DNA of 64,000 nucleotides, from positions 90,876-154,875 of the forward strand of contig CAVRDW010000003.1 of assembly GCA_963719995.1 (NCBI GenBank), written 5' to 3'. The DNA is from an uncultured beta proteobacterium (GTDB taxonomy: Bacteria; Pseudomonadota; Gammaproteobacteria; Burkholderiales; SG8-39). Of this stretch, positions 12,571-26,769 are shown one piece after another; the first letter of the stretch is position 1, and the number at the start of each line of letters is the position of its first letter. The translations under genes and the position numbers were made by a program. A model generated the notes under the pieces. That model saw nothing but the letters and a program-made list of their open reading frames with translations. It did not search any database and had not been told where the DNA came from.

Positions 12571-13310
12571 CAGTACAGCGCGCTGGCGAGCTTGCGGCGG
12601 TATTCGGAGACGAGCTCCGGCTGGTTGGTGGCGAGGTTGAAGAGGTTGAGGAGCTGCTTGCGCGCCTCGCCTTCCTTGAAGTCCTTCGCGCGGCGCACGA
12701 TCTCGACGAGCTCGTCCATCGCCTCGCGGTAGCGCTTGCTCCCGGCATAGAGCCCCGCGAGCGCGAGGCGCGCCTCGTGGTCGGCGGGGTTCGCGGCGAG
12801 CTTCGCCTTCAATTCGTCCACGCCGGGCCCGCTTTTGCCCGCGCGCGCGTAGGCGATGCCTTGCTTCAGCGCCTCGATGCGCGCCTCGTAGTCCGGGTCG
12901 AACTTCACCTTGGCGAGCTCGGCATCGGCCTCGTCGAGCTTGCCGCCCGCGTAGAGCGCCTCCGCGCGCGCGAGCGCGAGCTCGGAGGCGGAGGGCAGGA
13001 GCTTCTCGAAGAACGCGCGCACCTGGCCTTCGGGCTGGGCGCCCATGAATTGCGACACCGCCTTGCCGTCCTTGAAGGCGATGACGTTGGGGATCGAGCG
13101 GATGCCGAAGGCCTGCGAGAGCTCCTGGTTGTCGTCGGAGTTGATCTTCACGAGCTTTACGCGGCCCGCGTAGTCCTTCGCCACCTTCTCCAGGATCGGC
13201 GTGAGCGAGCGGCAGGGCCCGCACCACGGCGCCCAGAAGTCGGCGACGACGGGCGTGGTCTTCGAGGCTTCCAGCACCTCGCGCTCAAAGGTGGGTGTGG
13301 TGACGTCCAT
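12570..13310 (-). CDS. cnoX: Thioredoxin-TPR co-chaperone (CnoX/YbbN family)
   Basis: DFWAPWCGPC thioredoxin domain followed by TPR helices ending YRRKLASALY. Confidence 0.88.
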   Translation of the reverse strand: MDVTTPTFEREVLEASKTTPVVADFWAPWCGPCRSLTPILEKVAKDYAGRVKLVKINSDDNQELSQAFGIRSIPNVIAFKDGKAVSQFMGAQPEGQVRAFFEKLLPSASELALARAEALYAGGKLDEADAELAKVKFDPDYEARIEALKQGIAYARAGKSGPGVDELKAKLAANPADHEARLALAGLYAGSKRYREAMDELVEIVRRAKDFKEGEARKQLLNLFNLATNQPELVSEYRRKLASALY

Positions 13311-13417
13311 TGCGACCAATGTGAGGCTAAACGAGTCCCAGTTCAACCCTCGGCAGGACAGGGACTTGGAAGCGGCGAGTGCACACGACCCGCGCGGCGC
13401 GCGAATTCGCGAAACTC

Positions 13418-13431
13418 TTGATCTGGATTAA
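13418..13431. promoter_or_regulatory. FNR/CRP-family binding site candidate TTGAT-CTGG-ATTAA
   Basis: One mismatch to TTGAT-N4-ATCAA, in an AT-rich patch, centred ~60 bp upstream of the predicted +1 at 13484. Confidence 0.55.
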
Positions 13432-13449
13432 ATGAACGCCAACTCGCCG

Positions 13450-13477
13450 TTGACGCGCCGCGCGCCGGTGGTATCGT
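13450..13477 (+). promoter_or_regulatory. sigma70 promoter TTGACG-16bp-TATCGT with extended -10 TG
   Basis: Near-consensus hexamers in an intergenic region. Predicted +1 at G13484. Confidence 0.65.
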
Positions 13478-13483
13478 GGAATC

Positions 13484-13659
13484 GGACCAACGAGGGCAGC
13501 CGGAGCATCGGCCGCAGTCGCGAAACTCCTGGCGATCAGTTGGGATAGCGCCCCTCACGAGGTCCAAGCGCGGCAACCCCGCGCATTCAAGAGCGCCCAC
13601 AAAGCGCTGCCCGTGAACTCGGGCAACAGGCCCCGCAGATAAGCGGGGCCTTTCATTTT
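13484..13659 (+). ncRNA. Candidate orphan structured small RNA (~175 nt), family not recognised
   Basis: Bounded by a promoter and an intrinsic terminator. It has a multi-branched 5' domain (GGACC/GGTCC, GAGGG/CCCTC) plus three short hairpins. No credible CDS and no downstream same-strand gene. Confidence 0.6.
13628..13659 (+). terminator. Intrinsic terminator
   Basis: AGGCCCCGC-agataa-GCGGGGCCT followed by TTCATTTT. Confidence 0.8.
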
Positions 13660-13692
13660 GGGGGCCTGCTTCGAGCGGCGCCGCCGCGATCG

Positions 13693-14538
13693 CTACACGC
13701 GCGCGAGCAGCCGCTCCCAGCCTTCGTCCACCTCGCTCTGCAGCGTCTGCACCGCGGATTCGTCCAGCCCGCGGTAGCGGCGCTGCACCTGCAGGTAGTC
13801 GCGCACCGGCCGCGTCTTGGGCGGCCCGTTCAGCGTATAGCGGCGTCCGTCCTCGACCTCGTAGAGGGGAAAGACGCCCGATTCCACCGCGAGGCGCGTG
13901 AGGGCGAGGCCCTGGTCCTCCGGCACCCCCCAGCCGTCGAGGCACGGCACGAGCAGCGTGATGATCCTGAAGCCGCGCATCGCTTTGGCCTTCTCCACCT
14001 TGCGCAGGAAATCCGGCAGGTAGCCCGCCGACGCGGTCGCCGCGTAAGGCACTTCGTGGGCGGCCATGATCTCGGTGAGGTTCTTCTTCTTCGAGGGCTT
14101 GCCCGCGGGCGTGGAGCCGGTGCGCGCGAAGTGCGGCGTGGAAGAGGACTTCTGCGCGCCGGTGTTCATGTAGCCCTCGTTGTCGAAGCAGACGTAGAGG
14201 ATGTTCTCGTTCCTCTCGGCGGCCGACGACAGGCACTGGAAGCCGATGTCGTAGGTGCCGCCGTCGCCCGCGAACACCACCACCTGCGTGTCCTTCTTCC
14301 CGAGCGCATCGAGCGCGCGGCGCAGCCCCGAGGCCGAAGCCGCCGACGTGGCGAGCGGCGGCTGGTACACCGGGATGCGCAGGCCGGAGAGCGGCTGCGG
14401 CCCGGCGATGATCGCGAGGCAGGAAGGCGGGATCACCGCCACCGTGTCGGGGCCGAGCGCGGCGAGCGCGTGCCGCAGCGAGAGCGCCTCGATGCAACCC
14501 GGGCAGGCCGCGTGGCCCGAGCAGAGCAGATCGCTCAT
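13693..14538 (-). CDS. 2-oxoacid:acceptor oxidoreductase beta (TPP-binding) subunit
   Basis: GHAACPGC and the GDGGTYDIG...DNEGYMNTG TPP motif. Confidence 0.9.
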   Translation of the reverse strand: MSDLLCSGHAACPGCIEALSLRHALAALGPDTVAVIPPSCLAIIAGPQPLSGLRIPVYQPPLATSAASASGLRRALDALGKKDTQVVVFAGDGGTYDIGFQCLSSAAERNENILYVCFDNEGYMNTGAQKSSSTPHFARTGSTPAGKPSKKKNLTEIMAAHEVPYAATASAGYLPDFLRKVEKAKAMRGFRIITLLVPCLDGWGVPEDQGLALTRLAVESGVFPLYEVEDGRRYTLNGPPKTRPVRDYLQVQRRYRGLDESAVQTLQSEVDEGWERLLARV

Positions 14539-17308: not shown

Positions 17309-17862
17309 GCGGCCACCCGGGCGAGCTGCGCCTCGATCCTGCGGTAGCCTTCCACGCAGGCCGCCGCGTTCTCGCGCGCGTTCTTCGGCGCTTCTTCGGC
17401 GATCGACGCTTCGAGCGTTTCCAATGACGGCGCGCCCACGGCGCAGGCGAGCGCGCCGAGCAGCGCCGAGTTCACCATGCGCCCGAGGCCGTTACGCTGC
17501 GCGACCTCCAGACCGTCCACCGGCAGCACGCGGTAGCCGGGGAGGACCTGCGCGAAGTGCTCCGGCGGCTGGCGCGAATTCACCACGATGAGCGTCCTCG
17601 GCGTGGCGGTGGCGAGGAACCTGCCTTCGAGGAGGCTCGCGTCGAAGCAAAGCAGCGCGTCGGCCGCCTCGATGTCGCATCGGAGGCGAATGGGCTTGTC
17701 GTCCACCCGGATGAAGGAGCTGACCGGCGTCCCGCGCCGCGCGCCGCCGTAGGTGGCGAAGCTCTGCACCTCGCGGCCCTCGGCGAAGAACGCCGCGGCG
17801 AGCAGCGTCCCCGCCAGCTGCGCCCCTTGCCCGCCCCGCCCCTGGATGATGATCTGGAGCAT
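17305..17862 (-). CDS. 2-oxoacid:acceptor oxidoreductase gamma subunit
   Basis: GRGGQGA...YGGARRGTPV...NSALLGA. Confidence 0.9.
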   Translation of the reverse strand: MLQIIIQGRGGQGAQLAGTLLAAAFFAEGREVQSFATYGGARRGTPVSSFIRVDDKPIRLRCDIEAADALLCFDASLLEGRFLATATPRTLIVVNSRQPPEHFAQVLPGYRVLPVDGLEVAQRNGLGRMVNSALLGALACAVGAPSLETLEASIAEEAPKNARENAAACVEGYRRIEAQLARVAA

Positions 17863-17900: not shown

Positions 17901-17914
17901 TTGAGGCGGATCAA
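17901..17914. promoter_or_regulatory. FNR-like box TTGAG-GCGG-ATCAA upstream of the oxidoreductase operon
   Basis: One mismatch to consensus. Centre lies ~41 bp upstream of a plausible minus-strand +1 (~17867, -10 CATGCT), matching class II geometry. Confidence 0.55.
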
Positions 17915-26627: not shown

Positions 26628-26769
26628 GCGATCTCCTGTTGCCCGAATTATGCGTCTTGAACCGCTACCATGCCGTCGCATGGGGAGAGCCGGACTCGCG
26701 GCATTCATCGCGATCAACGCCGCGGTATCGGCGCTGGGCGGCTAAACTAGCTTCTTTGAGGAGCCCCTA

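Follow-up and report, generated by a model that had tools for sequence, protein, structure and literature searches.

A structured RNA gene with its own promoter and an FNR-type box in an uncultured Burkholderiales lineage represents an RNA family absent from Rfam

In betaproteobacteria, the FNR-dependent sRNA AniS of Neisseria is short and simple. In Enterobacteriaceae, the FNR regulon includes the sRNA FnrS, which represses mRNAs that the cell can spare when oxygen is lacking (PMC8139620). The same source describes several other sRNAs that are wired to regulators of anaerobic or nitrate respiration, including PaiI (P. aeruginosa), PcrZ (R. sphaeroides), DenR (P. denitrificans), NarS and RoxS (PMC8139620). 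The locus described here comes from a lineage within the Burkholderiales that is known almost exclusively from metagenome bins. To our knowledge, no regulatory RNA has been studied so far in that lineage.

In the stretch of DNA that was analysed (64 kb, hereafter the window), positions 13484 to ~13659 of the plus strand are a stand-alone gene for a structured RNA of ~175-176 nt that belongs to a family absent from Rfam (Table 1). The gene sits between two minus-strand genes: a thioredoxin-TPR gene (Pfam PF00085 and PF14561) whose likeliest start is at 13310, and the final gene of a 2-oxoacid:ferredoxin oxidoreductase (PFOR) operon, which ends at 13693. An earlier sequence-only reading of this interval had proposed a free-standing RNA gene that is transcribed from a promoter of its own, ends at its own terminator and is non-coding, and the analysis bears this out. 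Searches with Rfam 15 at gathering thresholds returned no match in the whole 64-kb window and none in 12 diverse homologous loci, so neither set holds a confident hit to a known family. When the threshold was relaxed to E up to 10 over 13300-13720, six matches appeared that are noise (13.6-18.6 bits, E>0.2); five of them overlap the terminator hairpin in whole or in part, the sixth is upstream of the promoter (13334-66), and no match of any kind was found inside the RNA body. The sequence-only reading had also set the RNA apart from tRNA, tmRNA, SRP RNA, RNase P and 6S RNA, which agrees with the empty Rfam scan and with the presence of separate 6S and SRP genes elsewhere in the genome. The 6S model misses the window and finds the genome's 6S RNA at C5:1571728-1571914 (47.1 bits); likewise, the SRP model misses the window and finds its target at C1:90721-90819 (77.6 bits). 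No description of this RNA was found in the open-access full texts that were searched.

Table 1. Features of the RNA gene and its promoter region (positions are those of the window).
Feature	Position	Strand	Details
FNR/CRP-family box TTGATCTGGATTAA	13418..13431	+	TTGAT-CTGG-ATTAA; one mismatch (ATTAA) to TTGAT-N4-ATCAA
Sigma-70 promoter	13450..13477	+	-35 TTGACG 13450-55, 16-nt spacer, TG 13469-70, -10 TATCGT 13472-77
Predicted RNA	13484..13659	+	~176 nt; start inferred from promoter, end from terminator
RNA 5' domain	13484..13565	+	
P1	13484-88 (GGACC) with 13561-65 (GGTCC)	+	closes three-way junction
P2	13492-95 with 13553-56	+	four pairs in model
P3	13499-502 (GCCG) with 13509-12 (CGGC), plus G13496-C13515 and C13497-G13514	+	
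P4a/internal loop/P4 module	13520..13551	+	most conserved module of the family (consensus, 43 distinct sequences)
P4a	13520-22 with 13549-51	+	
P4	13527-33 with 13539-45	+	hairpin, near-invariant
Hairpins following the 5' domain	13568..13624	+	
H1	13568-84	+	hairpin, loop CAACC; missing in L027 and L031
A-rich single-stranded linker	13585-91	+	between H1 and H2
H2	13592-608	+	hairpin, loop CCACAAA
H3	13609-24	+	hairpin, loop UGAACU
Intrinsic terminator	13628..13659	+	9-bp stem (8 G-C) 13628-51, 6-nt loop, tail UUUCAUUUU

The boundaries of the gene are marked by a promoter and a terminator. A consensus promoter scan of 13200-13800 found a single site, on the plus strand, against 0.0 expected, and its elements TTGAC and GTGnTA are conserved in a 13-sequence alignment of the RNA loci. 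Judging from the geometry of this promoter, transcription would start at G13484. At the other end, the terminator scan found the plus-strand stem followed by TTCATTTT, with a T tract that reaches 13659. The number of terminators found between 13200 and 13800 (one, against 0.6 expected) is not significant by itself; family-wide conservation extends to its stem and to the tail TTtcatTt (consensus of 43 distinct sequences). The interval 13484-13659 is GC-rich and folds on the plus strand with -83 kcal/mol (z = -4.4), and none of 200 shuffles did as well, whereas the minus strand of the same interval reaches z = -2.5.

Homologues establish that the element is conserved. A DNA search of 61 related genomes recovered the whole element, including promoter and box, from 12 further genomes of the genus with 67-78% identity, and a thirteenth genome (G017) carries a copy that is 100% identical; diverged full-length copies were recognized by eye in four other genera. 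A covariance model of the full RNA (R1; 182 positions, 51 pairs) was built from 13 sequences with a supplied structure and matched 54 of 151 genomes, in 17 of the 34 genera, of the window's family. Across the order, R1 matched 8 of 151 genomes, and outside the window's family only the match in G269 looked genuine. A second model restricted to the 5' core (R2; 77 positions, 22 pairs, 41 sequences) matched 5 of 151 genomes across the order: the window's own, all three others of its family in that sample, and G269, a member of a second family (f55). Within that second family, R2 found the RNA in 18 of 81 genomes and 5 of 13 genera, and among the genomes searched the RNA was not found in the other families sampled from the order. 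The sequence-only reading had asked whether the element recurs in related genomes and had called it an orphan; the label is misleading because conservation spans two families, with the RNA in 72 of the 232 genomes that were sampled from them.

The window's own genome carries the RNA once. A few genomes hold it twice, namely G144 (C4:405575-405782 and 430438-430642, 25 kb apart), G081, G066 and G029. Several candidate members were set aside. The weak R1 matches L051-L053, outside both families, rest mainly on the 3' hairpins and the terminator, and they were dropped because R2 did not find them. A locus in the window's own genome (L054, G000:C1:882030-882227, minus strand, 29.5 bits with R1) has P4-like and H3-like hairpins and a similar terminator; it was likewise missed by R2 and is probably no paralogue. 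L018 is a 38-nt chance match. A pattern scan contained at least 14 true members, as judged by R1, among the 80 loci listed, with ~50 chance matches expected, and it bears no information on how the RNA is distributed.

The fold of the RNA is established by covariation. P2, P3 and the P4a/P4 arm form a three-way junction under the closing helix P1. In a model-guided alignment of 35 sequences with 51 pairs (A3), standard pairs occupy 93.5% of the cells, compared with 37-48% after the 3' partners had been shifted by 1-3 columns. Changes on both sides of a pair occur in 35 of the 51 pairs, every one of the ten helices contains such a pair, and the observed values were reached by none of 500 shuffles. 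Since A3 had been fitted to the model, the count was repeated on a plain MAFFT alignment of 41 5' cores that was not fitted to any structure; here 82.7% of the cells are paired, against 36-45% in the slid controls. For instance, the third pair of P4 is C-G in 25 sequences and G-C in 10 in this alignment.

All motifs named in the sequence-only reading are present where it had placed them, and compensatory changes in every model helix uphold its GGACC/GGTCC and GCCG/CGGC helices and its three 3' hairpins. Its GAGGG/CCCTC helix (13492-96 with 13552-56) survives in part: four pairs are kept as P2, whereas G13496 pairs with C13515 in the model. Two further proposals found no support. GTCGC (13517-21) and GCGAT (13532-36), drawn as a hairpin that exposes a CUCCU anti-Shine-Dalgarno loop, are complementary in the window, yet they are paired in only 57.8% of cases across 35 homologues, a value that 252 of 500 shuffles reach. 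As this hairpin is unsupported, the CUCC at 13526-29 does not lie in a loop; it belongs to the 5' strand of P4. Similarly, the GGAG/CUCC contact, suggested as a kissing loop or an alternative fold, shows no compensatory change and does no better than shuffled alignments (221 of 500).

Conservation is unevenly spread over the fold. In the consensus of 43 distinct sequences, the P4 module reads gcGrgAtTCCnGGCrAccGTCnGGaTAnCg, with an internal loop in which GAU faces UA, and conservation is also strong in H2, H3 and the terminator stems. P3 varies in length, and its longer variants, read by eye, often end in GAAA loops. Five loci (L036, L041, L045, L046 and L047) have an extra hairpin between the 3' strand of P2 and the 3' strand of P1. 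This hairpin contains AAGGAGG, which is Shine-Dalgarno-like and partly sequestered in the stem, and no plausible ORF was seen behind it.

Public RNA data give a hint of expression. Sixteen runs from 12 studies were listed as sharing words with 13300-13800, and four of them were compared with the window; they consist of assembled contigs, from which transcript ends, strand and level are not readable. Two soil runs (X2 and X3), which are of the same size and may be one data set, contain one identical 158-nt contig that covers 13495-13652 at 100% identity. A sediment run (X11) contributes a contig over 13501-13555, with adapter sequence at its 13501 end, and two 95-nt variants over 13526-13620 that carry 2-3 differences. 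In run X1, two contigs cover 13529-13720 and 13717-13800; the first runs through the terminator into the convergent gene, so read-through, antisense transcription or DNA carry-over is possible there. None of the four runs covers 13300-13494 and three of the four lack cover of 13653-13800, gaps that are not evidence of silence. Together, the contigs are a weak hint of a discrete, abundant transcript.

The promoter is preceded by a box of the FNR/CRP family. Its centre at 13424.5 lies about -60 to -61.5 from the inferred start, which is the class I position for FNR and CRP promoters, and the FNR-type pattern with at most one mismatch occurs four times in the 64-kb window against 0.42 expected. 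The sequence-only reading had tied this box to the RNA promoter, and comparison among homologues agrees. Among 35 loci of the window's family, 19 have the core TGA-N6-TYA at -61/-62 from the model start with different upstream genes; the core stands at another offset in four loci and has no match in 12, two of which keep the 5' half-site. The offset is the same in L003 and L004, where a co-directional upstream gene ends just before the box, so the box belongs to the promoter of the RNA. In the second family, no FNR-type box was seen in the 8 loci with upstream sequence examined. Because the box is absent or displaced in some loci and unseen in the second family, oxygen control is not a constant of the RNA family. 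Induction by anoxia is nonetheless plausible in the window's family, and in the window's genome the RNA is probably controlled by an FNR-type regulator.

Further features of the genome speak for the link to FNR. Perfect TTGAY-N4-RTCAA sites number 65, where base composition predicts 1.7, and there are 19 matches to Crp/Fnr-type HTH domains, which would correspond to an unusually large FNR-type regulon. The perfect boxes cluster at C5:365-517 kb and C1:800-996 kb, which are probably islands of anaerobic-respiration genes. An Fnr-like gene (G000:C5 ~375.6-376.7 kb; L177:1001-2073) is split over two frames, with what looks like a frameshift near L177:1290. The frame of its N-terminal part includes C-X2-C-X5-C, and its C-terminal half matches the Fnr model NF008365 with 132 bits, below the full-length cut-off because only half of the gene is in frame. 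The frame break may be an assembly error or a real lesion; the genome lies on 6 contigs yet its marker completeness is only 78.75%, a combination that points to indel errors in the assembly. Both this break and the mismatch in the window's box (ATTAA) count against the FNR link.

Further boxes were seen within the window. One, at 17901-17914 (TTGAGGCGGATCAA), is centred ~45 nt upstream of the minus-strand ATG at 17862, which begins the first gene of the 2-oxoacid:ferredoxin oxidoreductase operon convergent on the RNA gene. Since this operon is also preceded by an FNR-type box, both convergent units may be under FNR control. The other one-mismatch boxes are at 26704 and 51853.

What the RNA does can be proposed from these features. 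The reading that we prefer, and hold with about even confidence for and against, is that of a trans-acting, Hfq-associated base-pairing sRNA under FNR-type control in the window's lineage. The sigma-70 promoter would drive the RNA gene, and at low oxygen an FNR-type regulator would bind the box and boost the promoter in the window's genome and in most of the family. Transcription would end at the intrinsic terminator, and the RNA would fold into the P1-closed three-way junction followed by the three hairpins and the terminator hairpin. The A-rich linker and the 3' U tail would then bind Hfq, and the RNA would pair in trans with mRNAs and so, like FnrS in E. coli, adjust how well these are translated or how long they last once oxygen has become scarce. 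We infer the FNR control, the role of Hfq and the base pairing; an hfq gene is present in the genome.

No obvious long, conserved, unpaired seed-like stretch was found in the consensus of 43 distinct sequences. The most conserved nucleotides are in the P4 hairpin and the stems, so recognition by a protein or a ligand fits at least as well. The RNA might thus bind a protein, either as a decoy or sponge or as the RNA part of a small RNP, and act by sequestering or scaffolding rather than by pairing with mRNAs, which we regard as a possible but tentative explanation. The recognition site would be the P4a/internal loop/P4 module, perhaps together with the sequence-conserved stems of H2 and H3. That conservation peaks in a hairpin with an internal loop and in stems, and not in single strands, speaks for such a role, as do a multi-helix junction that is elaborate for a plain base-pairing sRNA and the longer P3 variants with GAAA loops, which are typical of folded RNAs. 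Conversely, nothing indicates a partner, the neighbours vary so that no protein gene is co-located, and one copy of the module per RNA would make a poor sponge. The sequence-only reading had suggested that the repeated hairpins titrate a protein; in the sense of a CsrB/RsmY-type sponge this was rejected. The loops of H1-H3 lack GGA repeats, the single conserved GGA lies inside P4, and a search for a CsrA gene in the genome, which is 78.75% complete, gave none. The RsmY model scores 14.9 bits on the terminator only.

A bolder form of this idea, which we consider rather unlikely, is a new class of folded RNA whose P4/three-way-junction domain binds a specific protein or small molecule and which was recruited to the FNR regulon in one uncultured soil/sediment Burkholderiales lineage. 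Such an RNA would not be a routine base-pairing sRNA; it would serve either as the core of an RNP or as a sensor of the orphan riboswitch type. Taken by itself, the suggestion that the transcript is a ligand-sensing, riboswitch-like aptamer of a trans-acting or 'orphan' kind, in which the junction binds a metabolite or ion and so alters the activity or stability of the RNA, is improbable. The architecture is aptamer-like, with a P1-closed junction whose joining nucleotides are conserved; however, known riboswitch classes do not match the window or 12 homologues (Rfam 15), no alternative pairing between domain and terminator was seen by eye, no downstream gene is conserved, and nothing points to any ligand.

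The gene is independent of its neighbours, as is established by comparing its surroundings across loci. Among 29 loci with Pfam support for the downstream neighbour, this gene is convergent in 20 and on the same strand in 9, and it belongs to at least 14 families. The proposal that the RNA does not serve the following gene in cis was therefore sustained. Linkage to thioredoxin or PFOR genes was considered and rejected: the thioredoxin-TPR gene neighbours the RNA in only 7 of 35 loci, all in the window's genus and all divergent from the RNA, and the PFOR gene does so in the window only. A gene for a 3'-5' exonuclease (PF01612, ~200 aa) is a recurrent neighbour at five loci in several genera; L028, L029, L043 and L048 have it upstream, and L032 has it >1 kb downstream. 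In one genus of the window's family (g2; L045-47), clpB lies upstream on the same strand. In the second family, clpB precedes the RNA by 110-170 nt and a CrtC-like gene converges on it, and the RNA keeps its own promoter (TTGAC-N17-TAAAAA). The position directly downstream of clpB on the same strand (L188-L199, L045-L047) may be the ancestral location. In the second-family genus g109 (e.g. L193 and L195), an inverted repeat, CTGTTTTT...AAAAACAG, was seen by eye just upstream of the -35 element.

These arrangements bear on the notion that the element acts in cis, as the leader of a downstream gene, as a 3' element of clpB or as a regulator of the divergent thioredoxin gene. Such a role would suit the second family and genus g2, where the RNA follows clpB by 110-750 nt on the same strand, and the 7 loci of the window's genus where it diverges from the thioredoxin-TPR gene. 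It is nevertheless very unlikely, as the RNA has its own promoter in all contexts, a strong terminator precedes any downstream gene, most downstream neighbours are convergent, and neither the clpB nor the thioredoxin linkage holds family-wide.

The locus is non-coding. Two frames are open in the window, a 46-codon GTG frame on the plus strand (13476-13616) and a 33-codon ATG frame on the minus strand (13555-13656), and neither strand has an ORF that the 35 homologues share. The plus-strand frame, which the sequence-only reading had named as a competitor to its non-coding interpretation, is not kept in homologues. In many homologues a minus-strand frame opens with MKGPA, since the terminator tail has ATGAAAGGCCCCGC as its complement; these frames then diverge because loop lengths differ by non-multiples of three. 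A small protein made from either frame is hence hardly credible in spite of the open frames and the recurrent MKGPA start, for the plus frame is lost, the minus frames part right after MKGPA, and the substitutions are compensatory for helices.

The element represents a new RNA family that has its own promoter and whose elaborate fold is well supported, with ten covarying helices and members in two families of Burkholderiales / Betaproteobacteria. The present alignment and models would permit annotation of the family and a comparative search for targets. If the FNR link holds, the RNA would extend the oxygen response of these abundant soil and sediment bacteria to the post-transcriptional level.

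Seen as a putative base-pairing sRNA of the FNR regulon, the RNA would have its nearest counterparts in function in FnrS and the other low-oxygen sRNAs. It resembles AniS in being betaproteobacterial and in its putative FNR-type link, a comparison made by description and by the negative Rfam scan only. It also resembles the 'motif' RNAs of Weinberg and Breaker, which are conserved, covarying, multi-helix RNAs with promoter and terminator, mostly from metagenome-assembled genomes; it differs from them in that none catalogued in Rfam 15 matches the window or 12 homologues. A literature search for a motif of this kind returned only the 2010 survey. PaiI, PcrZ, DenR, NarS and RoxS belong to other phyla or classes and answer to other regulators (NarXL, PrrA/FnrL, ResDE), and Rfam gave no homology between them and this RNA. 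Rfam is expected to include FnrS, and no homology to FnrS was found, with no Rfam match within the RNA body. The two RNAs share a stand-alone sRNA gene and an intrinsic terminator, and the box described here is a candidate counterpart of the FNR-type site at the promoter of FnrS. The RNA described here differs from FnrS in being longer and built on a multi-helix junction, in the class I-like position of its box (~-60) and in a dependence on Hfq that is putative.
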